The notes: a model not told the origin generated them from the letters alone. Shown: positions 3,323 through 13,141, counted from the first letter of the stretch. The stretch: 24,000 nucleotides of DNA from Halomonas fontilapidosi (GCF_014192285.1 NZ_JACHXQ010000010.1:106098-130097), one strand, 5' to 3'. A program made the numbers and translations.

Positions 3323-4717
3323 TCAGAGACCCAGCAGGCGCAGCCACCAGCGACGCCAGGGCGGGTCGAGCAGCCCCGCGGCGTTATGACGTGCCTGCAG
3401 GAAGACGCTGCGCTGGTGAGTGAAGCGCAGGAAACCGGCCTCGCCGTGATAGGCCCCCATGCCGCTCTCGCCGATGCCGCCGAAGGGCAGGGCAGGCACC
3501 GTGTAGTGCCAGAGGGTGTCATTGAAGACCACACCCCCGGAGCGGGTCTGCTCCAGCAGTCGCCAGCGGCGGCCCGGGTCATCGGTAAAGGCGTAGAGCG
3601 CCAGCGGGCTCGGGCCGTCGGCGACCTTGGCCAGGGCAGCATCGAAGTCGCGCACGCCGATCACCGGCAGCCAGGGGCCGAAGACCTCCTCCTGCATGAT
3701 CGCCAGGTTGGCGGTGGGGTCGATCACCAGCGTAGGCGGCAGCTTGGCACCGTGGCCGAGTTCCAGGCGCTCGCCGAGCTCGATCACCCGGCAGCCATGG
3801 TCGCGCGCCTCGTCGAGCAGTCGCTCGAGGCGGCTGCGGGTGGCGTCGCCGGGCACCGCCGAGTAGTCATCGCTGGCCGTGCCGTGGGGATAGAAGTCCT
3901 TTACCACCCCGCGGATCGCCTCGATGAAGGCCGGCAGGCGTGCCGCATCGATCAGCACGTGGTCCGGCGCGATGCAGGTCCGGCCGGCATTGAGCCACTT
4001 GCCGAAGGCGATGCGCCGGGCGGCATGCGTCAGGTCGGCATCATCGGCGACGATGGCCGGGGCCTTGCCGCCGAGCTCCAGGGTGACGGGCGTGAGGTTG
4101 GCGGCCGCGGCCTGGGCCACCTTGCGGCCCACCCGGGGGCTGCCGGTGAACAGCAGGTGGTCGAAGGACAGGGCGGCGAAGGCTCTGCCGATGTCGGCAT
4201 CCCCGGTGACCACCTGCAGTTCCTCGGGCGCGAAATAGCGTTCGACCAGTTCAGCCAGCAGGGCGCTGGTGGTGGGGGTCTGTTCGCTGGGTTTGATCAT
4301 CACCCGGTTGCCGGCGGCCAGCGCATCCAGCGCCGGCATCAACGCCAGGCTCCAGGGGTAGTTGGCCGGGGCGATGATGCCCACGACCCCCAGCGGCTGG
4401 CGGTAGAGGCGCGCGCGGCCCGGCTTCAGCCGCCAGGGCACGGCGGCACGGCGGGGCGTCATCCAGCGCTTGAGGTGGCGGCGGGTGTGGCGGATGGCCA
4501 GCAGCAGCGGCACGACCTCCGCCAGACGTGTCTCGGCCTCGGCGCGGTGGCCGACGTCCTGGTGGATCGCCTGGGCGATCTCCTCGCGGTGATGGCGAGT
4601 CATGCGCGCCAGGCGGGCAAGGCGGTCGCGACGGATCGCCGCCGAGGGGAGAGGCTCGGCAGCGAAGGCCTGGCGCTGCCGGTCAAGGCGCGCCTGCAGG
4701 GCGCGGGCATCGGTCAT
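3323..4717 (-). CDS. NAD(P)-dependent aldehyde dehydrogenase, ALDH3 / coniferyl-aldehyde dehydrogenase-like
   Basis: ALDH motifs are present: ELGGKAP, the catalytic-Cys region GRTCIAPDHVLI, and EEVFGP. I place the start at Met18 of the track ORF (ATG at 4717..4715) because a GGAGA Shine-Dalgarno lies 5 nt upstream and MTDARALQARLDRQRQAF is a typical N-terminus for this subfamily. Confidence 0.85.
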   Translation of the reverse strand: MTDARALQARLDRQRQAFAAEPLPSAAIRRDRLARLARMTRHHREEIAQAIHQDVGHRAEAETRLAEVVPLLLAIRHTRRHLKRWMTPRRAAVPWRLKPGRARLYRQPLGVVGIIAPANYPWSLALMPALDALAAGNRVMIKPSEQTPTTSALLAELVERYFAPEELQVVTGDADIGRAFAALSFDHLLFTGSPRVGRKVAQAAAANLTPVTLELGGKAPAIVADDADLTHAARRIAFGKWLNAGRTCIAPDHVLIDAARLPAFIEAIRGVVKDFYPHGTASDDYSAVPGDATRSRLERLLDEARDHGCRVIELGERLELGHGAKLPPTLVIDPTANLAIMQEEVFGPWLPVIGVRDFDAALAKVADGPSPLALYAFTDDPGRRWRLLEQTRSGGVVFNDTLWHYTVPALPFGGIGESGMGAYHGEAGFLRFTHQRSVFLQARHNAAGLLDPPWRRWWLRLLGL

Positions 4718-4899
4718 GCACGTCTCCGTGTGTCGATGAGGATGGAAGGGGACTCGGGCACTGGGCACAATGTAGGCCTTCTGCCAACGGCTTGTCAGCT
4801 ATCGGAGCCGTCGCATAGGTGGCAGGGTTCGGGGCTGAGCCGTCGGCAGGCTGCCCCGGCGCCTCTCGCCTTGAATACCGGCATTTCCCAGGAGTCGCC

Positions 4900-6033
4900 A
4901 TGACCTCGCTCGTGCTGCACGAACTGCCCGCCATCGAGGCGGTACCCGCCGCGGCCTGGAATGCCCTGGTCGGCGACGATCATCCCTTTCTGCGCCATGA
5001 GTTCCTGCATGCCCTGGAAGCCAGCGGCGCGGTGAGTCCCGCTACCGGCTGGGTACCGCGCCACCTGACCCTGTGGCAGGACGCGGCGCTGGTCGGCATC
5101 CTGCCGCATTACCACAAGCACCACTCTTTCGGCGAATACGTCTTCGACTGGGGCTGGGCCGATGCCTGGGAGCGCGCGGGAGGTCGCTACTATCCCAAAG
5201 GGCTCTCGGCGATCCCCTTCACCCCGGCACCCGGGCCGCGGCTGGCCCTGGCCCCACATATCGATCCGCTGGCGGCGCGCCGAGTGCTGGCCGAGGCCTG
5301 GGAGGCCAGTGCGCTGTCGAGCTGGCACCTGCTGTTCGCCGAACCGGCCGAGGTCGATGCCTGGCAGGCGGCCTGTCCGTTGCTGCTGGCCCGCCACGGC
5401 GTGCAGTTTCAGTGGCACGACGCCGGCTTTGGCGACTTCGAGGGTTTTCTGGCCGCCCTGACCGCGAAGCGGCGCAAGGCAATTCGCCGCGAGCGGCGCC
5501 TGGTGGCCGAGCAGAGGCTGACCCTGCATCGCCTGGAGGGCGAGGCCATCGACGCCGCGGCGATGGCGCACTTCTTCCGCTGCTACGAGATCACCTACCT
5601 CGAGCGCGGCCGCCATGGCTACCTTGGCCTCGACTTCTTCGAGCGCCTGCGCCGAACCCTGCCCGAGTCACTGCTGCTGATCCAGGCCCGTCGCGACGGC
5701 GTTCCGGTGGCCGCCGCGCTCTGTCTGCAGGGGGCACGCACCCTCTATGGGCGTTACTGGGGCAGCGAGGTACTGGCCGACTGCCTGCACTTCGAGGCCT
5801 GCTACTACCAAGGCATCGAGCACTGCCTGGCGCGCGGCCTGACGCTCTTCGATCCCGGGACCCAGGGCGAACACAAGCTCGCGCGGGGGTTCGCGCCACG
5901 CCGGCTCACCTCGCTGCACCATATCGCCGACCCGCGGCTTCGCGATGCCGTGGCGCGCTTCTGTGCCGAGGAGCGTACCCACGTCGAAGCCTACTGTCGG
6001 GCAGCCGAGGCGGCGCTGCCCTACCGGAGTTGA
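4900..6033 (+). CDS. Conserved DUF482 / FemAB-like GNAT-fold protein
   Basis: The start is set at the ATG at 4900, which has a CAGGAG Shine-Dalgarno about 6 nt upstream. The N-terminal signature W-NALVGDDHPFLRHEFLHALEASGAV resembles the conserved (N/D)PFL-HEFL-ALE-SG motif of that family as I recall it. The family assignment was not verified by any search. Confidence 0.55.
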   Translation: MTSLVLHELPAIEAVPAAAWNALVGDDHPFLRHEFLHALEASGAVSPATGWVPRHLTLWQDAALVGILPHYHKHHSFGEYVFDWGWADAWERAGGRYYPKGLSAIPFTPAPGPRLALAPHIDPLAARRVLAEAWEASALSSWHLLFAEPAEVDAWQAACPLLLARHGVQFQWHDAGFGDFEGFLAALTAKRRKAIRRERRLVAEQRLTLHRLEGEAIDAAAMAHFFRCYEITYLERGRHGYLGLDFFERLRRTLPESLLLIQARRDGVPVAAALCLQGARTLYGRYWGSEVLADCLHFEACYYQGIEHCLARGLTLFDPGTQGEHKLARGFAPRRLTSLHHIADPRLRDAVARFCAEERTHVEAYCRAAEAALPYRS

Positions 6034-6260
6034 CCGAGTGACGACTGCTACACTCTCCCTGAGGAATGTAATCAGTATGTATCTCATACTTCAGCACCAA
6101 ATCGGTGACTTCGTTCGCTCGATACATTCAAGTCAACGATCAGCGAGTGGCAGTGATCGTCCTGAAAGGTCTCGTTCCCGGCTCCAGGTTACCGTTGTCG
6201 GGGAACTGGTCGTCTGCAGGTTGAATTTATCTCGCTGCCGCAGGGATGAGGTGAGTCGCC

Positions 6261-7640
6261 ATGGAAATGAAGCAACGTTGCTGGCTGGTGGCGGAGGATC
6301 CGGCAGCAGCAGAGCAGTTGGAAGCCAAGATCGACTCGATCGGCTGGAAAGTAAGGCGACTATCTCCGCCTCTTTTCAGCTCTCGCCTGGAGGAGGACAG
6401 AGAGTGCGGGGTCGGACTGGTTCTGCTCGATGGCATGGCGGATGCCCGGCTAGCTCAGCTGGAGGCAATGCTGCTCGAGAGCCACTGCCCCTGGATGGTG
6501 GTCGCGGCAGACGATGCGGTCGAGGACGCCAGCAGGCGACAACTGGTCGCCACGCTGTGTCATGCCGTGGTGGCACCGACCATCGACCTCGCCGAACTTG
6601 ACTGCTTGATGCGACATGCGTTGCCCCTATCACTGCTTCGGAGTGGAGACAGCAGGCCCTGTCACAGGGAGGCTGCCCTATCAGCTGACATGGCAGAATA
6701 TGAAATGGTGGGGACCAGCCCCGTGATGCGGTCCCTTTTCCAGGTCATCCGCAAGGTGGCAGCGGTGGAGGCACCGATCCTGATAGGCGGTGAATCCGGG
6801 ACAGGCAAGGAACTGACCGCCCAGGCGATTCATGAGCGTTCACCGCGGGCGTCATCGTCGTTTCATGCCATCAATTGCGGGGCCTTGCCGGACCACCTGA
6901 TCCAATCTGAGCTCTTCGGGCACGAGAAGGGGGCCTTCACCGGAGCGGTCCATCGCAAGATCGGCCGGATCGAGGCAGCCGACGGTGGCACCCTCTTCCT
7001 TGACGAGATCGGTGATCTGCCGCTGGAACTTCAGGTCAACCTGCTGCGCTTTCTCGAGACACAGAGCATCCAGCGCGTGGGCGGCCTGGAAGAGATCAGA
7101 GTCGATGTGCGCATCATCGCCGCCACCCATGTGGACCTCGAGGCTGCCATCGAGGAGGGGCGATTCCGCGAGGACCTCTACCATCGGTTGAATGTGCTGC
7201 ATGTCAGGGTGCCGGCACTCCGTGAACACCCTGACGATATCGAGGTGATGGCGCGTTACTTCTTCGACCGCTTTTCAGGAGAGAAGAGCGCCCGACTCAA
7301 GGGGTTTTCCCGCGAGGCGCTGGTGGTCATGCGCCAGTATGCCTGGCCCGGGAATATCCGTGAGCTGATCAACCGCATCCGGCGTGCCATGGTCATGTGC
7401 GAGAAACGCCTTATCCAGCCCAGGGATCTGGGCATCGAGCGTCGCAAGATCGTGCGCCATTCGATGACGCTCGATCAGGCCAGGGAGAGGGCAGAGCGAG
7501 AGGCATTGGTTGCCGCGCTGGAACGCAACGAGAGTAGGGTCCGTCCGGCGGCCCGGGAGTTGGGAGTCTCGCATGTCACCATCTATCGGCTGATGGAGAA
7601 GCACGATATTTCCCATCCGGGAGTAGAAGCCGAGGGCTGA
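6261..7640 (+). CDS. Sigma-54-dependent transcriptional activator (NtrC-family bacterial enhancer-binding protein) with a degenerate N-terminal receiver-like domain
   Basis: AAA+ motifs are present: Walker A GESGTGKE, the sigma-54 contact loop GAFTGA (6930..6947), Walker B LFLDEIG, RIIAAT and [12 protein letters not shown]-terminal Fis-type helix-turn-helix is present ([19 protein letters not shown]). A GAGGTGAG Shine-Dalgarno lies about 7 nt upstream of the start. Confidence 0.9.
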
Positions 7641-7691
7641 TCGGCTGATCGTATTATCTTTCCACCCTCCTGTACTGAGGATCTGCATGTT

Positions 7692-7720
7692 GCCTGATGG
7701 GCCTTCCATCAGGCTTTTTT
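7692..7720 (+). terminator. Rho-independent terminator of the activator gene
   Basis: There is a perfect 9-bp stem, GCCTGATGG (7692..7700) pairing with CCATCAGGC (7706..7714), and a 5-nt loop. It is followed by TTTTTT (7715..7720) and lies 52 nt after the stop codon. Confidence 0.8.
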
Positions 7721-7758
7721 ATGGCTGGTGCCAGGATCCAGTTCTGTGGGAAGAAGGA

Positions 7759-7781
7759 GGCGGTTCATGCATGAAACGGCC
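7759..7781. promoter_or_regulatory. Candidate upstream activator sequence (imperfect palindrome) for the sigma-54 activator
   Basis: GGCGGTTCATG|CATGAAACGGCC has 9 of 11 arm positions complementary around a CATG centre. The centre is about 166 bp upstream of the -24 GG, a typical enhancer distance. The functional assignment is inference. Confidence 0.3.
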
Positions 7782-7934
7782 TTCTCGAATTAAGCTAATT
7801 GTCTGATTTTGCAACATTCCTGACCTGAGATCCGTCTCCTGAGCGGGGAGGGAGGGAGGAGGGTTACACCTGCTTAACGGGGCCTGCCGAGGAGCTCTTC
7901 GCATTTAATCCAATAAAAACAGTGACTTAAATTT

Positions 7935-7950
7935 TGGCATGGCGTTTGCT
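7935..7950 (+). promoter_or_regulatory. Sigma-54 (RpoN) -24/-12 promoter of the fap-like operon
   Basis: TGGCATGGCGTTTGCT compared with the consensus TGGCACG-N4-TTGCW has one mismatch (C to T at position 6) and exact GG-to-GC spacing. It ends 46 nt upstream of the first operon ATG (7997). It lies downstream of a terminator and next to a sigma-54 activator gene. Confidence 0.8.
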
Positions 7951-7996
7951 CCCATCAGGGTAAGAACCGCATACGAGATGTTGAGCAGGTGTCGGC

Positions 7997-8431
7997 ATGA
8001 AGGTTAAGACTCAGATACAGCGACCCATGAGCAATCAGTGGATCACGGCAGCGATGCGCGAGTCTGCCAGCTACGGCCTTTGGCTAGCCGTGATGGTCGG
8101 TCTTCTCGGCGCCATGGTGGCCGTAGATACACGGCAGGATGCCCAGGCAGCAGAGGCGACGCTTGTCGAGGCCTCTTCCCCCGCGCTGAAGCCTGTAGAG
8201 GCATCCGATGCTGTGCGAATGGAGCCTCTCGATGACCCTTCGCTCCAGGCCGTTCGTGGTCGCCATGTCGATGCCGGGCACCTTGAAGGCAAGAGGAGCA
8301 ATTCGGTCATCCTCTGGGACGAGCGCGGGAAGGATACCCCGGCGGCTGGCAGCAAGAGTACCGTCAAGTCTCGCGCCACGGGAATCGGCAACCATCAGGA
8401 AGCCACCGTTACCACCCGCGGGGGGAGATAG
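7997..8431 (+). CDS. fapA: FapA-like small exported protein, first gene of the Fap-type amyloid operon (putative chaperone/modulator)
   Basis: The ORF is 144 aa, with an AGGTG Shine-Dalgarno 5 nt upstream. A hydrophobic segment YGLWLAVMVGLLGAMVAV is followed by AQA|AEA, which could be a signal peptide with a long n-region or a signal anchor. The rest is low-complexity and looks disordered. The assignment rests mainly on position and size within a fapABCDEF-ordered operon. Met11 or Met20 are alternative starts. Confidence 0.55.
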   Translation: MKVKTQIQRPMSNQWITAAMRESASYGLWLAVMVGLLGAMVAVDTRQDAQAAEATLVEASSPALKPVEASDAVRMEPLDDPSLQAVRGRHVDAGHLEGKRSNSVILWDERGKDTPAAGSKSTVKSRATGIGNHQEATVTTRGGR

Positions 8432-8433
8432 TC

Positions 8434-9156
8434 ATGGGCCTCATGAAACTGCTGGACAAAGACGTGAGAAAGGGCTCAGCACCGATGGCGATGCGGTACG
8501 GCAAGAAGGCCGGCAAGTTGGGCAGCCACACTCGAACATCAGGCGTGAGGGTCGCCACCAAACTGATGGCAGTTGCCTCTCTGTTGGCTGCCGGCATGCC
8601 ACTGGCCATGGCACAGCAAGAGTTGACGACGCGCAACAACAGCGCCCTCGACAGCAGCGCCCTCAGCAGGGTCACGGGCATCAGCACCACCAACCTGGCC
8701 GCTGGCGAGGGCAACTTGCAAAGCAACAGTGGTGCCATCTCCATCGGTGATGTCGCCACCACGGCCAACGCCCTACAGCAACGGTCACGCATCGAAGACT
8801 CACTCGTCGACCGGCAGGACAGCGTCAGTATTGAGGGCCGCGCCTATCGACATTCCGAAGGGTGGATGTCGATCAATCAGGCAGCGGGCCTGGGGAATGT
8901 GCAGAGCAACGCCTTCGAGGTGGCTCTGGGCATATCGGCCAGCAACCTGAGTGACAGCAGTCTTCAGCAGGTAATGGCCGATCAGCAGGGGCTGAATGGG
9001 ACCGAAGGTGATGATTCGGGAAAGTCTTCACGGAGGATCGAGGTCGACGAGACCACCTTCGAGGGCACCCGAGGTGTCATCCAGGTTAACCAGTCAGCCG
9101 GCACGGGAAACGCTACTCGCAACAGCTTCCGCATGAACATGTCGCTGGGAGAGTAG
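8434..9156 (+). CDS. fapB: FapB-like amyloid subunit (putative nucleator / minor fibre subunit) with three imperfect repeats
   Basis: A GGGGGAGA Shine-Dalgarno precedes the ATG at 8434, which lies 2 nt after the fapA-like stop. A signal peptide ends ...LLAAGMPLAMA|QQE. Three repeats share the core xG-x4-N-x-(A/S)AGxGNxxxN. Alternative starts at 8485 or 8491 would shorten an unusually long n-region of about 40 aa. The protein has no Cys. Confidence 0.75.
   Translation: MGLMKLLDKDVRKGSAPMAMRYGKKAGKLGSHTRTSGVRVATKLMAVASLLAAGMPLAMAQQELTTRNNSALDSSALSRVTGISTTNLAAGEGNLQSNSGAISIGDVATTANALQQRSRIEDSLVDRQDSVSIEGRAYRHSEGWMSINQAAGLGNVQSNAFEVALGISASNLSDSSLQQVMADQQGLNGTEGDDSGKSSRRIEVDETTFEGTRGVIQVNQSAGTGNATRNSFRMNMSLGE
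8653..8748 (+). repeat. FapB-like repeat R1 (coding)
   Basis: SSALSRVTGISTTNLAAGEGNLQSNSGAISIG. Confidence 0.7.
8836..8931 (+). repeat. FapB-like repeat R2 (coding)
   Basis: GRAYRHSEGWMSINQAAGLGNVQSNAFEVALG. Confidence 0.7.
9046..9144 (+). repeat. FapB-like repeat R3 (coding)
   Basis: DETTFEGTRGVIQVNQSAGTGNATRNSFRMNMS. Confidence 0.7.
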
Positions 9157-9208
9157 CGCAATCGCAACGCAGGAATCCGAACGATTCGGTTCATCCAGGA
9201 GGAAAGCC

Positions 9209-10261
9209 ATGAAGACGTTCCACAAGACTCCGCTTGCCATTGCCGTCGCCACACTCATGGTAGCGCCCTATGCGCTGGCTCAGGGAGACGGCAACAAGTT
9301 CGATACCAACAGCACCATCGATTCAGAACTCGATAACTCGATCGATGTCGATATCGACCATGCAACCAACAGCGACAGCGACTTCTATACCAGCGTGTTC
9401 ACGTTGAGCGTCGCGGATAACTATGCCGGTGCCACGGTCGACAGCAAGCAGCTGATCGATGGTAACTCTGTTACCAATGATGGCTCGGAGAACGACGCAA
9501 CGATGGGCGGTGACTCCTTGTCCGGCTCCTCGGGCAACATCGGTGCCAACGTGGCCGCCGGCGACAGCAACAGCCAGGCCAACGATGCGGCACTGGCCTC
9601 GTCGGACGCCGCGGAGGTATTCGGCCAGGCCGAAGCCTATTCCGCCCAGTCGGCCTCCGGCAATAGGGTCAGCAATATCGGCAGCTCCAATTCGGCCCAG
9701 CTGGGTGGCAACTCGCTGCAGGGCGCTTCCGGCAATATTGCGGCCAACGTTGCCGCCGGTGTCGGGAACGCCCAGCAGAACTCGCTGGCAGTGACGGAAA
9801 ACAGCGTCTCCGGCGATGCCAATGCCACCTCGGCTGGCGTCCAGTCAACCTATGGCAATGCCACCACCAACAGCCCAGTGAGCCGTGAGACGGGTGGCAC
9901 CGCCGAGGTTGATTATGACGTGACGCTGGATGCCAGTGGCCTGGTCATGCAGCAGCAGGAGCCCGTTGTGGTGCCGCGTCACGATGCTGATGCGCATTCT
10001 GAAGGCGAGACAACCGAAGGGCACAACGATCTTGCCGGCCTGGCCTTCCAAGGCGTCGAAGGGTCTAAGCTCGAGATGACCGTCAGCGGTGAGGTCCCCA
10101 CAACGGGGCCGACCTATACCGACCATCGCAACGACGCCTCCCTGGACGGCAGCGCCCTCAGTGGGGCCAGCGGTAACGTCGGTGCCAACGTGGCGGCAGG
10201 GACCAACAACCTGCAGCGCAACTCTCTCTCCATCGCCTCGTCAAGTGCCGGCGACAGCTGA
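9209..10261 (+). CDS. fapC: FapC-like major functional-amyloid subunit with three imperfect ~35-aa repeats and two linkers
   Basis: An AGGAGGA Shine-Dalgarno lies 5 nt upstream. The Sec signal peptide is MKTFHKTPLAIAVATLMVAPYALA|QG. The three repeats share the core SGN(I/V)(G/A)ANVAAGxxNxQxN, the same motif I recall from the Pseudomonas FapC repeats (SGN[IV]G[AV]N[IV]AAGxGNQQxN). Linker 1 is short and linker 2 is long, as in FapC. Confidence 0.85.
   Translation: MKTFHKTPLAIAVATLMVAPYALAQGDGNKFDTNSTIDSELDNSIDVDIDHATNSDSDFYTSVFTLSVADNYAGATVDSKQLIDGNSVTNDGSENDATMGGDSLSGSSGNIGANVAAGDSNSQANDAALASSDAAEVFGQAEAYSAQSASGNRVSNIGSSNSAQLGGNSLQGASGNIAANVAAGVGNAQQNSLAVTENSVSGDANATSAGVQSTYGNATTNSPVSRETGGTAEVDYDVTLDASGLVMQQQEPVVVPRHDADAHSEGETTEGHNDLAGLAFQGVEGSKLEMTVSGEVPTTGPTYTDHRNDASLDGSALSGASGNVGANVAAGTNNLQRNSLSIASSSAGDS
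9497..9601 (+). repeat. FapC-like repeat R1 (coding)
   Basis: ATMGGDSLSGSSGNIGANVAAGDSNSQANDAALAS. Confidence 0.8.
9695..9799 (+). repeat. FapC-like repeat R2 (coding)
   Basis: AQLGGNSLQGASGNIAANVAAGVGNAQQNSLAVTE. Confidence 0.8.
10136..10240 (+). repeat. FapC-like repeat R3 (coding)
   Basis: ASLDGSALSGASGNVGANVAAGTNNLQRNSLSIAS. Confidence 0.8.
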
Positions 10262-10306
10262 TCCTGCTCGCCAGCGCTTGGCAGCACGGCGATGCTGCAA
10301 CCCAAT

Positions 10307-10336
10307 CCCGGCCTGCTTCGGCAGGCCGGGTGTTCT
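10307..10336 (+). terminator. Intra-operon stem-loop after fapC-like (partial terminator / mRNA 3'-end stabiliser)
   Basis: A perfect 10-bp GC-rich stem, CCCGGCCTGC (10307..10316) pairing with GCAGGCCGGG (10321..10330), closes on a TTCG (UUCG) tetraloop and is followed by TGTTCT. It lies in the 107-bp fapC-fapD gap. A second 6-bp hairpin, GCAGCA-N6-TGCTGC, sits at 10281..10298. Confidence 0.5.
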
Positions 10337-10368
10337 ACCCCAGACGAGAGTGAGTCGAGGAGTCGCTC

Positions 10369-11073
10369 ATGCCAACCCGCCATCGATTCGCGCTAGGGGC
10401 CGTACTCCTGGGGCTCTTGCTCCCCTTTCTCGATGCTCAGGCAGCCAGTATGCGTCTGGGCAATGTCATGTCCGGCACGATGATCCATAAGGATGTCCAG
10501 TCCATCCGTGAACGTCGCTTCGAGAATATCGTCGAGCAGAAGACGGACTTCTCCTGTGGCGCGGCCTCGTTGGCCACCATTTTCCGGTATGCCTACCAGA
10601 AGCCCTCCGTCACGGAGGAGAGTGTCCTGGCTGGCATGCTCGAGGTCGCGGACCCCGAGCTGGTTCGTCAGCAAGGGTTTTCGCTGCTGGACCTGAAGCA
10701 CTACGTGGAGGAACTGGGCTATCGCGGCCGGGGGTACGAGGTGGCACCGCAAACCCTGGATGAGGTGTCGATCCCGGTCATCGTGCTGCTGGACCTGGAG
10801 GGCTACAAGCACTTCGTGGTGATGAAGAAGGCTAGCGGTGATCGTGTCTACGTGGGGGATCCGGCCCTTGGCAATCGCGTCATGGATCGCGAAGCGTTCA
10901 TGGACGCCTGGAACAACATCATTTTTGCCGTCGTCGGCGAGGGATTCGATCCGGGCACGGTACTGCTGGATCCACGGCAGCCGTTGACGGCACATCGCAT
11001 GCAGGATGTCTTCGCCCCGGTACCGAAGCAGAAGCTGCTGGATTTCGGTTTTCGTCATGCCGACCTCTTCTGA
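10369..11073 (+). CDS. fapD: FapD-like periplasmic cysteine peptidase, family C39 (stand-alone, Sec-exported)
   Basis: A GAGGAG Shine-Dalgarno precedes the start. The signal peptide is MPTRHRFALGAVLLGLLLPFLDAQA|AS. The C39 catalytic signature is intact: Gln57 and Cys63 in EQKTDFSCGAASLATI (Cys codon tgt at 10555..10557), and His148 and Asp164 in YKHFVVMKKASGDRVYVGDPALG. Confidence 0.85.
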   Translation: MPTRHRFALGAVLLGLLLPFLDAQAASMRLGNVMSGTMIHKDVQSIRERRFENIVEQKTDFSCGAASLATIFRYAYQKPSVTEESVLAGMLEVADPELVRQQGFSLLDLKHYVEELGYRGRGYEVAPQTLDEVSIPVIVLLDLEGYKHFVVMKKASGDRVYVGDPALGNRVMDREAFMDAWNNIIFAVVGEGFDPGTVLLDPRQPLTAHRMQDVFAPVPKQKLLDFGFRHADLF

Positions 11074-11120
11074 CCCCAGCGGGCCTGCAGGGGCTATCAG
11101 CCGAACAGGGGGTGACGATC

Positions 11121-11921
11121 ATGTTCAAGAAAGCGTGGCAACGTAATTGCAAGAAGGCAGGCCTCACGGCCTTGCTGGCGGTTTCCACGACGGGATTGGC
11201 GGCACCGGCCGAGGCCGCCACCTCGGACTTTGATGCCTTTACATCGAGCCGCGAGCTGAGTGATGCCGAGCTCGGACAGCAACGAGGACGGTTCGTCGAC
11301 AAGGGCAGCCTGATGTTCTTCGGGGTGCAGGTAACCAGCGAGTGGCGGACGTCCCACGGCGAGCACCTGGTGGCCCAGGGGGACTTGAGGGGGGATCTCA
11401 GCGGCGCAACACCCCGCGTGAGTTTTCAGCCGCGGATCACCGCAGTAGCGGCGGATTCCCTGGCCTCGGATGGCCTTGCGGGCAATGGTGCCACCGTCGT
11501 GGATGCCGGTACCGGCAACGCCGGCGGCGTGGTGCAGACCATCCAGGCGGCCGGGGATTTCAACGCCGCCGCCAACGACCTGCAGATCGATGTGCTCGAC
11601 GCCGCCGATGCCTCAGCTCCCCAGGGAGGGGGCGCTGCGAGCGGAAGCGCCGTCGAGCAACGGCTGGCATCCGGCACGCGAGTCTCGGTCAGCAATGGAC
11701 CCCAGGGCATGGGGGTTTCACTGGATGTCCCGGGCATGGGTCGCGTCAAGCAAGCCGTCGTTCCGAGTCAGGGGCTCCGTCAGTCGATCCAGTTGAGCAG
11801 TGACTTCCAGCAGGTGCGCAACCTTACGCGACTACAGCTCTATATGGGGGAGCGCGGTGCGAAGGCCGATGCGCCAGGCGTGCGCCGTGCCGTCCGCTCG
11901 GCGCGTCCCCTGGCTCCTTGA
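11121..11921 (+). CDS. fapE: FapE-like secreted protein (putative minor fibre component)
   Basis: The track ORF starts at the GTG at 11112. I prefer the ATG at 11121, which has a CAGGGGG Shine-Dalgarno about 8 nt upstream. The signal peptide is MFKKAWQRNCKKAGLTALLAVSTTGLAAPAEA|AT. The protein contains one segment resembling an amyloid repeat (see findings). The assignment rests on operon position, size and that segment. Confidence 0.6.
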   Translation: MFKKAWQRNCKKAGLTALLAVSTTGLAAPAEAATSDFDAFTSSRELSDAELGQQRGRFVDKGSLMFFGVQVTSEWRTSHGEHLVAQGDLRGDLSGATPRVSFQPRITAVAADSLASDGLAGNGATVVDAGTGNAGGVVQTIQAAGDFNAAANDLQIDVLDAADASAPQGGGAASGSAVEQRLASGTRVSVSNGPQGMGVSLDVPGMGRVKQAVVPSQGLRQSIQLSSDFQQVRNLTRLQLYMGERGAKADAPGVRRAVRSARPLAP

Positions 11922-12082
11922 GGAACCCTGAATCCGTGGATGGCTGGTCTACACACCGTCCGGGGTGAACGATAGGGTAGGAGAGTGCAGGCCACTGGTC
12001 GTGCCGGAAGAGGGGCGCGGCCAGTGTCGCTTGGCAGGAAGCTTCGGACCAATGATTTGATGAGCACACAGCGAGGTCATTC

Positions 12083-13141
12083 ATGCGGGATACGGCATCA
12101 CTCTTTTACGTTTCCATCGTGGCAGCATCGCTTGGAGCGGCATCGACGGCTCACGCCCAGATGGCCGATGACGAGGAAGAGGTGGTTCGCGAAGCCAGGC
12201 CCAGCAAGAGTGTCGAGAACGTCCTTCGCGAGGAGCATACCCTCTTCTCCGATCGGCTGACTATCGAGCCGGGCATCAACTACTCCTATTCCGATCGCTC
12301 TCAACTGGCCCTGCGGGGCTTTCTGGCTCTTGACGCCATCTTTCTGGGGGAGATCAGTGTCGATGCGGTCGAAAGCCACATCACGACTTTCGACCTGAAT
12401 ACCCGTTACGGCTTGACCGACCGGCTGGAACTCGGGGTGAACCTCCCCTTCGTTTACCGAACCAGTACGTACCAATCCATAGGTGATGATTTCTCTACCG
12501 AGAAGAACAGTGAGACATCCGTGGATGAAGCGGACCTCGGTGATATCAGCCTGTCACTCTCTTATCGGCTATTCCAGGAAACGGAGACCCGTCCCGATCT
12601 CGTCTGGAATCTTGGCGTGCGTGCGCCAACAGGCACCGATCCTTACGGGCTTGATGTGCGTCAGGACTCCAATACCAACCTGAATGTGCCCACGGAGCTG
12701 CCAACCGGTAATGGCGTATGGGGTGTCAACACCGGGGTATCGCTCCTCAAGACGCTGGACCCGGCCATCGTCTTTGCCAATCTCGGCTATACGTATAACT
12801 TCGAGGAGAGTTTTGATGATATCTCTGCGAGCGAAGGCAACCAGCCCGGGGATGTGAAGCTGGGGGATACCATTCGCGCTGGCTTCGGGACGGCCTTTGC
12901 GCTCAACGAGAACTTCAGCCTCTCGCTTTCCTACTCTCACGAATATATCCAGCAATCTGAAACAACCCAAGGCGGTGCTACCAGCAAAGTGGTCGGCAGC
13001 GACGCCAATGTCGGGGTGCTCAACCTGGGCGGGACCTACGCACTGGATGACAGCACCTCCATCGTCACCAGCCTGGGCGTGGGCCTCACCGACGATGCCT
13101 CGGACGTCAGCCTGACCTTCCGCATGCCCTTCCAGATGTAG
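12083..13141 (+). CDS. fapF: FapF-like outer-membrane beta-barrel secretion channel (Phenol_MetA_deg / PF13557-like barrel)
   Basis: A GAGG Shine-Dalgarno lies 6 nt upstream. The signal peptide is ...SIVAASLGAASTAHA|QMA. Most of the sequence shows the alternating amphipathic pattern of beta-strands (GINYSYS, LELGVNLPFVYR, GDISLSLSYRLF, GVNTGVSLLK, FANLGYTYNF, FSLSLSYSHEY, VGVLNLGGTYAL, VTSLGVGL, VSLTFRMPF), with an aromatic residue near the C-terminus. It is the last gene of the operon, as FapF is. Confidence 0.75.
   Translation: MRDTASLFYVSIVAASLGAASTAHAQMADDEEEVVREARPSKSVENVLREEHTLFSDRLTIEPGINYSYSDRSQLALRGFLALDAIFLGEISVDAVESHITTFDLNTRYGLTDRLELGVNLPFVYRTSTYQSIGDDFSTEKNSETSVDEADLGDISLSLSYRLFQETETRPDLVWNLGVRAPTGTDPYGLDVRQDSNTNLNVPTELPTGNGVWGVNTGVSLLKTLDPAIVFANLGYTYNFEESFDDISASEGNQPGDVKLGDTIRAGFGTAFALNENFSLSLSYSHEYIQQSETTQGGATSKVVGSDANVGVLNLGGTYALDDSTSIVTSLGVGLTDDASDVSLTFRMPFQM

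Follow-up and report, generated by a model that had tools for sequence, protein, structure and literature searches.

In a 24,000-nucleotide stretch of Halomonas fontilapidosi DNA (NZ_JACHXQ010000010.1, bases 106098-130097; hereafter the window, in whose coordinates positions are given unless another locus is named), two secreted proteins of a functional-amyloid (fap) operon share a leader-like segment behind their signal peptides: FapE, encoded directly downstream of the periplasmic C39 cysteine peptidase FapD, and a small protein encoded by the first gene of the operon, here termed the H-type protein. The common segment lies 20-40 residues past the signal peptide and follows h(-12)-[SD]-D-x-[ES]-L(-7)-x-x-h(-4)-R-G(-2)-[RK](-1)-[FY] (h, hydrophobic; x, any residue; numbered from the candidate cleavage site, with -1 as P1). 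We see about an even chance that this segment is a diverged leader of the double-glycine type, bound by FapD and cut after Gly-Arg/Lys. What appears new in this picture is the recognition of the conserved LSDxELxxMRG[RK] segment as a leader of the double-glycine type, together with its Gly-Gly variants in sister operons and the H-type family.

In Pseudomonas, FapD is periplasmic and its Cys is required for secretion, which the C38A substitution abolishes (Rouse et al. 2017; PMC5557850). The same study found FapE to be the sole Fap protein without its N-terminal peptides in mass spectrometry (MS), proposed it as the likely FapD substrate, and noted that the Fap proteins are without canonical C39 sequences, pointing to GG/GA motifs and not naming RG[RK]. 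Since 2017 the literature has described both the substrate and the place where it is cut as unresolved (PMC5557850, PMC6173800), a 2018 review calling the substrate still to be determined, and no later work on a FapD cleavage site was found in the library searched. An earlier, sequence-only reading of the window had proposed that a pro-peptide is removed after R-G-R; its choice of FapE as substrate had thus been anticipated by Rouse et al., and the specific site is what is new in it. Its observation proved correct, and its interpretation is supported in part.

Results

Translation confirmed the two 17-residue copies of the motif, LDDPSLQAVRGRHVDAG at 8228..8278 (H-type protein) and LSDAELGQQRGRFVDKG at 11256..11306 (FapE), each preceded by an N-terminal hydrophobic signal segment, and a six-frame scan of the window with the pattern L..x[SE]L...RG[RK] returned these two sites and nowhere else. 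When the whole H-type and FapE proteins were compared by BLASTP, the motif stretch alone aligned (10/19 identical; E = 0.009 as a single comparison). Profile-profile comparison of the two families with signal peptides removed (29 H-type and 151 FapE sequences) aligned 24 motif columns with a probability of 88.8% (E = 2.5e-6). The DNA of the two copies is ~37% identical and their R-G-R codons differ, which argues for a likeness kept at the protein level and not for a recent DNA copy. The modest pairwise E value and the mere 19 residues of the match would suit a chance or compositional resemblance between two low-complexity secreted proteins, but the family-level E value, the near-invariance of key positions across 149 + 29 sequences (below) and the uniqueness of the pattern in the window leave that explanation with a vanishingly small probability, and conservation of the motif in orthologues effectively refutes it.

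That conservation, which the sequence-only reading had suggested checking, was found in both families. A HMMER search with a Halomonas FapE profile yielded 440 family representatives, and FapE loci were sampled from 79 genome loci, 80 Pseudomonas-type metagenome loci and an Aeromonas locus; motif statistics come from 151 aligned representatives and 149 distinct locus sequences. (A word-indexed search with a diverse FapE alignment gave almost only Halomonas, and Pseudomonas FapE was reached by cluster look-up and metagenome scan.) The motif is among the most conserved parts of FapE: position -12 is L/I/V/M in 149/149 locus sequences, -10 is D in 143/149, -8 is E in 144/149, -7 is L/M in 149/149, -4 is L/M/I in 144/149 and -3 is R in 149/149. 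Gly(-2) is invariant (149/149 locus sequences and 151/151 representatives), -1 is R in 135 and K in 14 of the 149, and +1 is Y/F in 140 and A in 9. Pseudomonas FapE reads ELSDHELAQLRGR[FY]V, and Vreelandella FapE has RGK followed by AV, with Ala at +1 where others have an aromatic residue. The 29 H-type sequences behave likewise, with L/I/V/M at -12, L at -7, I/V/L at -4 and G at -2 in 29/29 each, R at -3 in 24/29, R/K (27) or Q (2) at -1, and Y/F at +1 in 26/29. P1 falls a median of 22 residues past the signal-peptide hydrophobic core in FapE and 38 residues past the hydrophobic segment in the H-type family.

FapE opens with a signal peptide (residues ~1-35) and a leader-like extension (36-60), and its beta-rich domain starts at residue 65. 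When the window's FapE was modelled by AlphaFold2 with 51 diverse sequences (mean predicted local distance difference test score (pLDDT) 76.9), the signal helix was followed by a short helix spanning residues 51-57 (DAELGQQ), a G-R-F segment at 59-61 with pLDDT <50, and strands from residue 65 with pLDDT >90. Such a modelled layout would suit a leader helix joined by an extended cleavage segment to a cargo domain, and would not suit a strand within the fold. The all-beta domain had no match in the PDB at E <= 0.001 by Foldseek, and the FapE sequence likewise had none in the PDB. FapE residues 128-164 (11493..11603) align with repeat 3 of FapB (hhalign 66%, E = 5.5e-5; GVVQxIQAAGDxNxAxN in FapE and GVIQVNQSAGxGNxxxN in FapB).

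The conserved positions include those that determine recognition of C39 leaders. For LahT150, leader positions -4, -7 and -12 are critical and -3, -5 and -8 tolerate charge changes (PMC6363468), and the Fap motif also fits the ComA consensus L(-12)x3E(-8)L(-7) quoted in the same source. More broadly, it shares with the leaders of class II bacteriocins, lanthipeptides and competence pheromones (ComA, LahT and PCAT1; AMS/PCAT C39 domains) the pattern L(-12)-S-x-x-E(-8)-L(-7)-x-x-h(-4)-x-G(-2), and thus hydrophobic residues at the three critical positions and an invariant Gly(-2), together with a predicted helical propensity of -10..-4, a leader length of ~20-25 residues and linkage to a C39 peptidase gene with Q/C/H/D residues. 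The differences are equally clear. Position -1 of FapE is Arg/Lys, never G/A/S, in all 149+151 sequences, and the H-type family also lacks a small residue there. The Fap candidate leader comes after a Sec signal peptide, whereas theirs begins the precursor, at its extreme N terminus, and is exported by a C39 ATP-binding cassette (ABC) transporter without a Sec signal. FapD is a free periplasmic protein where theirs is the cytoplasmic domain of an ABC exporter, and the FapE cargo is a folded beta-rich domain of ~200 residues, not a small peptide. Hidden Markov models (HMMs) of bacteriocin leaders gave no match to the window's motif peptides and only sub-threshold matches to the Gly-Gly variants described below (lanthipeptide leader, E = 0.046; bacteriocin-like peptide, E = 0.14). 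Leaders of the double-glycine class are removed by C39 domains, and the Fap leader, known here from sequence as a candidate, is best filed as a motif that works like a double-glycine leader yet departs from that class in two defining features, the small residue at -1 and the lack of a Sec signal.

Judged from sequence, the most informative line of evidence is the comparison with sister operons outside Fap proper, found by tblastn with FapD in a plasmid/chromid collection. Like fap operons, those of Cupriavidus, Croceicoccus, Polymorphobacter, Photobacterium and Vibrio set a periplasmic C39 peptidase beside a FapF-type barrel and encode secreted repeat proteins rich in Asn, Ser and Gly; the leader-like motif is present both in a small FapB-like protein and in the protein that takes the place of FapE. 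They differ in that the motif ends in Gly-Gly (G-R/G-K in some of the small proteins), as in canonical C39 leaders, the RGG proteins thereby having the small residue at -1. In the protein encoded directly downstream of the C39 gene, the motif up to the candidate bond, with the two residues beyond it in brackets, reads LTDDEMSSLRGG in Photobacterium (FV), LSNSSLEEYRGG in Vibrio (FQ), ITDYELATMRGG in Polymorphobacter (IR), LSEEVLARQRGG in Croceicoccus (IR) and ARLEESRGG in Cupriavidus (FD); the Indioceanicola protein has VDELDRSVGR followed by LLLPDG, with G-R in the place of G-G. FapE homology is detectable in the Photobacterium protein alone, whose alignment to the FapE HMM (E ~1e-4) covers the N-terminal half and sets RGG-FV against RGR-FV. 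The small FapB-like proteins upstream of the sister C39 genes, which match FapB at 92.8% in hhalign (E = 4e-7), also have the motif (KLDDVRGG, AFMTHSRGG, SLDIMNESRGG, VSDAELGEVAGK and VSEDALQATAGR). When the six frames of ten sister loci were scanned with the FapE-motif HMM, 5 of the best 8 matches lay in same-strand genes flanking the C39 gene (rough binomial probability ~1e-6, taking flanking genes as ~3% of scanned residues). In the Acinetobacter Fil locus (L162; related NCBIfam FilB/FilC models), no FapE-position gene and no clear motif copy were found, nor did we find processing data in the Fil literature.

Several of these loci merit a record of their own. Fap-like operons that are largely unannotated lie in L081 (Cupriavidus metallidurans CH34 megaplasmid, 3692..9310), L163, L164, L167 and L168. 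Their genes encode repeat proteins very rich in Asn, Ser, Asp and Gly, a FapB-like protein with a single repeat, a C39 peptidase of the periplasm, a protein in the FapE position and a FapF-like barrel, and these operons may specify further secreted fibre systems. On an Acinetobacter sp. plasmid (L169, 2438..6534), three small genes encode peptides that combine a classical leader (ELSRQEMKDTQGA) with hydrophobic, Gly-rich cores and match a class IIb bacteriocin model (E = 0.0035); the genes stand upstream of a stand-alone 207-residue C39 peptidase.

FapD is a plausible enzyme for such a site: the gene adjoins fapE, and the protein has a signal peptide, conserved synteny and intact catalytic residues, Q57, C63 (10555..10557), H148 (10810..10812) and D164 (10858..10860), which are invariant in 145 FapD sequences. 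Among solved structures, sequence comparison detects one relative alone, LahT150 (6MPZ; E = 9.2e-08), a double-glycine protease whose Cys and His align with those of FapD. The 145 Fap-type orthologues also have a conserved C-terminal tail, LLDFGF...LF, and have T59, A65, A75 and R121 where the FapD-like enzymes of Gly-Gly-type operons have Y, S, H and D/N.

Several observations nonetheless weigh against cleavage at this site. To our knowledge no characterised C39 peptidase accepts Arg/Lys at -1, the known substrates having G, A or S. Comparison of Fap-type with Gly-Gly-type enzymes showed no Fap-specific acidic FapD residue to match a basic P1, and the FapD differences that track P1 type (T59/Y, A65/S, A75/H, R121/D and the DFGF tail) gave no interpretable change at S1. 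Position -4, hydrophobic in most FapE sequences, is Gln in that of the window; conservation in FapE runs unbroken past the motif into the first beta strand; and the H-type family is unannotated, its AlphaFold2 model (four close homologues) being disordered and uninformative (pLDDT 48.8). In papain-like (clan CA) peptidases S2 usually dominates specificity over S1 and P1 Arg is common, and a fixed Gly(-2) beside a changeable -1 would accord with this. The reading of the segment as a C39 leader is thus favoured by conservation, the determinant positions, the adjacency of FapD, the sister Gly-Gly pairs and the missing N-terminal FapE peptides of the published MS, and is opposed by Arg/Lys at -1, unlike any characterised C39 substrate.

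The published data for Pseudomonas sp. UK4 also bear on the site. The first FapE peptide detected there begins at residue 72, not ~41 (MHIDSSTITPQFYVQ; one spectrum, non-tryptic ends), and the tryptic peptides expected from Y41 (YVMPGR and IISFGIVMSSTWTNAVGDTITGK, as read from close relatives) are absent, so that the missing pre-72 peptides fit a cut further downstream, near residue 70, equally well. Because trypsin cannot reveal a new N terminus after Arg, the published MS cannot decide the RG[RK] site; it does argue against the GG/GA candidates of Rouse et al., since in UK4 FapE that stretch lies under abundant intact peptides (RDPGTGTVVGGAGLGSGQGVTQTVR). A rival explanation, possible although we hold it to be rather unlikely, is that the motif is a docking or targeting element and no cut site: it would bind either FapD, whose C39 groove would act like a chaperone, or FapF by the latter's periplasmic part, and FapE would be cut downstream (~residue 70, UK4 numbering) or lose its N-terminal region to degradation after export. 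The lack of peptides before residue 72 agrees with docking, as do the Arg/Lys at -1, which is no C39 P1 residue, and the suggestion of Rouse et al. that the lost N terminus may be a 'FapF secretion targeting sequence' (PMC5557850). Set against this, Gly(-2) is invariant in both families and the sister systems have Gly-Gly pairs, as a protease site predicts, and the stretch from the motif to residue 72 forms the first strand of the confidently modelled domain (pLDDT >90), so that its discard is unlikely if the model holds; the missing tryptic peptide, long and hydrophobic, may simply have gone undetected.

Partial copies of the motif elsewhere in the system also speak to docking. True FapA carries the first half alone (ELSDxDFAxV), with S-S-G where FapE has R-G-R, and in UK4 a 22-residue FapA peptide over this half-motif is intact in 14 spectra, the N-terminal FapA peptide beginning at the signal-peptidase site (PMC5557850 Dataset 2). 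FapB of both Halomonas type and Pseudomonas type has a half-motif with the consensus [LI]-[SD]-D-[SA]-x-L-x-Q-Q, in the window NLSDSSLQQV at residues 171-180 (~8944..8973), in the linker between repeats 2 and 3; the motif HMMs score above 0 bits on this linker in 89/115 FapB sequences and 7/115 shuffled ones, and the UK4 FapB peptide ISTGPQSVDDNVLSQQNMTLLPDSR covers it uncut. That these half-motifs are conserved yet uncut indicates that the LSDxxL part can function without cleavage, a point in favour of docking.

The sequence-only reading had offered an alternative of its own, that the motif mimics the first half of a FapB/FapC repeat and would, as a strand, dock on monomers or fibre ends, capping or templating them. 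The repeats do share the spacing h-x4-h-x2-h-x-G with the motif (LDSSALSRVTGI, LDGSALSGASGN), the FapE alignment with FapB repeat 3 and the resemblance of the H-type C terminus to the GxGNxQ repeat core (E = 0.0036) are in keeping with mimicry, and when iterative HMM searching from the H-type protein was left unrestricted, it drifted into FapE, FapB and FapC. But the motif-only HMMs gave no positive score on the first halves of FapB/FapC repeats, their weak matches in FapB (maxima of 2.4 bits with the FapE motif HMM and 5.7 bits with the H-type motif HMM) lying in the linker between repeats 2 and 3; AlphaFold2 renders the FapE motif as helix and coil outside the beta domain; R(-3), [RK](-1) and the aromatic +1 are kept in FapE and the H-type family and not in the repeats; and sister-system proteins carry the same motif with Gly-Gly. 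Little supported by these results, mimicry seems to us a highly improbable account.

The sequence-only reading had also labelled the product of 7997..8431 FapA-like, and here it erred: the motif is real in two families, FapE and H-type, and the first protein is a member of a separate small-protein family that matches true FapA with an hhalign probability of just 0.6%. Because of the drift noted above, the families were defined by iterative HMM searches restricted to open reading frames (ORFs) upstream of fapB. The H-type family (29 members, from Halomonadaceae, Marinobacterium and an Oceanospirillaceae metagenome-assembled genome) occupies the first gene of its fap operons and shows, besides the leader-like motif, a VILWDE block that is invariant, a linker rich in Gly and GxxNxQ at the C terminus. 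True FapA (112 members, among them those of every Pseudomonas-type and Lysobacterales locus) is marked by a PDPNP block, ELSDxDFAxVSSG and a QQGLxPL C terminus, and no sequence homology to FapA was found in the window's H-type product. Orthology with FapA was rejected: the two families do not overlap, and 16 Halomonas loci hold both genes side by side in the order H-type, FapA, FapB (loci L002-L019; for example, L002 4299..4775 followed by 4778..5296). The window's operon has the H-type gene alone, and either lost true FapA or never had it. Both the H-type protein and true FapA are missing from some other fap operons (L020, L029-L033 (Vreelandella), L047, L058, L061 and L080 (Aeromonas)). In Halomonas sp. 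NO4 (L001, 4979..14946) a tandem operon duplication gives H-B-C-D-E followed by H-B-C-D-E-F, so that only one fapF is present; V-G-R replaces R-G-R in the first of its H-type copies.

The assignment of FapB, FapC, FapD, FapE and FapF in the sequence-only reading was borne out by NCBIfam matches and by synteny in 79+80 related loci (Table 1), and the closest FapE relatives are all from Halomonas, in line with a Halomonas-like host. FapE membership is further backed by placement between fapD and fapF and by the 440-member family, which includes Pseudomonas FapE. All five recognisable Fap proteins score below their NCBIfam equivalog cut-offs (for example, FapE 110.7 bits against 250 for NF058559 and FapD 284.3 bits against 330 for NF058616), which indicates a divergent Fap system. 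No ABC transporter was found in the operon. A sigma-54-dependent activator gene precedes it, as similar ones do in loci L038 and L067. The gap between fapE and fapF is 162 bases (11922..12082), and the FapF ORF has 352 residues where related Halomonas FapF ORFs have ~370-400; because its match covers only part of the model, the periplasmic N-terminal (coiled-coil) part seems short or absent.

Table 1 Features of the fap operon in the window and the two copies of the leader-like motif
Feature	Position	Strand	Remarks
Sigma-54-dependent transcriptional activator	6261..7640	+	Pfam Sigma54_activat E 2.4e-70; HTH_8/HTH_50; weak VpsR domain; upstream of operon
H-type small Sec-exported protein	7997..8431	+	First operon gene; no Pfam or NCBIfam match
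Motif copy 1	8228..8278	+	Residues 78-94 of the H-type product: L78-DDPS-L83-QA-V86-R87-G88-R89-H90-VDAG
Proposed scissile bond, copy 1	between 8263 and 8264	+	After R89
FapB	8434..9156	+	NCBIfam FapB E 2.3e-30; true start probably an internal Met near 8566
FapC, major amyloid subunit	9209..10261	+	NCBIfam FapC E 3.6e-56; 191.2 bits, slightly below the cut-off of 195
FapD, periplasmic C39 cysteine peptidase	10369..11073	+	Pfam Peptidase_C39 E 7.7e-20; NCBIfam C39_FapD E 5.1e-85
FapE	11112..11921	+	NCBIfam FapE E 6.5e-32
Motif copy 2	11256..11306	+	Residues 49-65 of FapE: L49-SDA-E53-L54-GQ-Q57-R58-G59-R60-F61-VDKG
Proposed scissile bond, copy 2	between 11291 and 11292	+	After R60
FapF, outer-membrane secretion pore	12083..13141	+	NCBIfam FapF E 6.3e-110; model positions 83-418 of 420

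Discussion

The window's operon shares with the Pseudomonas Fap system (Dueholm et al. 2010/2013; Rouse et al. 2017) the gene order B-C-D-E-F, the signal peptide and catalytic Cys of FapD and the N-terminal motif of FapE (ELSDHELAQLRGRYV in Pseudomonas), and differs from it in the divergence of its proteins, all below the equivalog cut-offs, and in having an H-type protein and not true FapA. If the segment is a C39 leader, it would act as one after Sec export: periplasmic FapD would bind the amphipathic leader by the side chains at -12/-7/-4, as LahT150 and ComA do, Gly(-2) would sit in a narrow S2 site of FapD, and a cut after Arg/Lys at -1 would release a pro-peptide of ~25 residues from FapE and of ~38 residues from the H-type protein, with F61 and H90 as the new N termini. 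Leader removal would license FapE and thereby fibre secretion through FapF, which would account for the secretion block in both FapD Cys-to-Ala and fapE mutants of Pseudomonas. True FapA and the FapB linker, with the first half LSDxxL and without Gly(-2), would not be cut.

A wider and decidedly speculative extension, which we think unlikely to hold as a whole, is that the enzymes of the FapD type constitute a periplasmic class of C39 peptidase, cutting Sec-exported proteins at an internal double-glycine-like leader, with P1 widened from Gly to Arg/Lys; that the half-motifs of FapA and the FapB linker are uncleavable pseudo-substrates competing for FapD, tuning the order or ratio of subunit export; and that the H-type protein is a hitherto unrecognised seventh Fap component processed in the same way.

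FapD proteolysis is essential for secretion of the Fap amyloid in Pseudomonas, where it is an important biofilm factor. The question of its substrate is narrowed here to one prediction, that cleavage takes place behind the invariant Gly(-2)-Arg/Lys(-1) pair closing a leader conserved in every FapE examined, for which the Gly-Gly variants of the sister systems and the uncut half-motifs of true FapA and FapB provide natural controls. If the prediction is true, C39 peptidases would be known to work also in the periplasm, in a Sec-dependent manner and with a basic P1; inhibitors directed at biofilms would have a defined peptide to aim at; and the Fap operons of the Halomonadaceae would gain a new family of small proteins.

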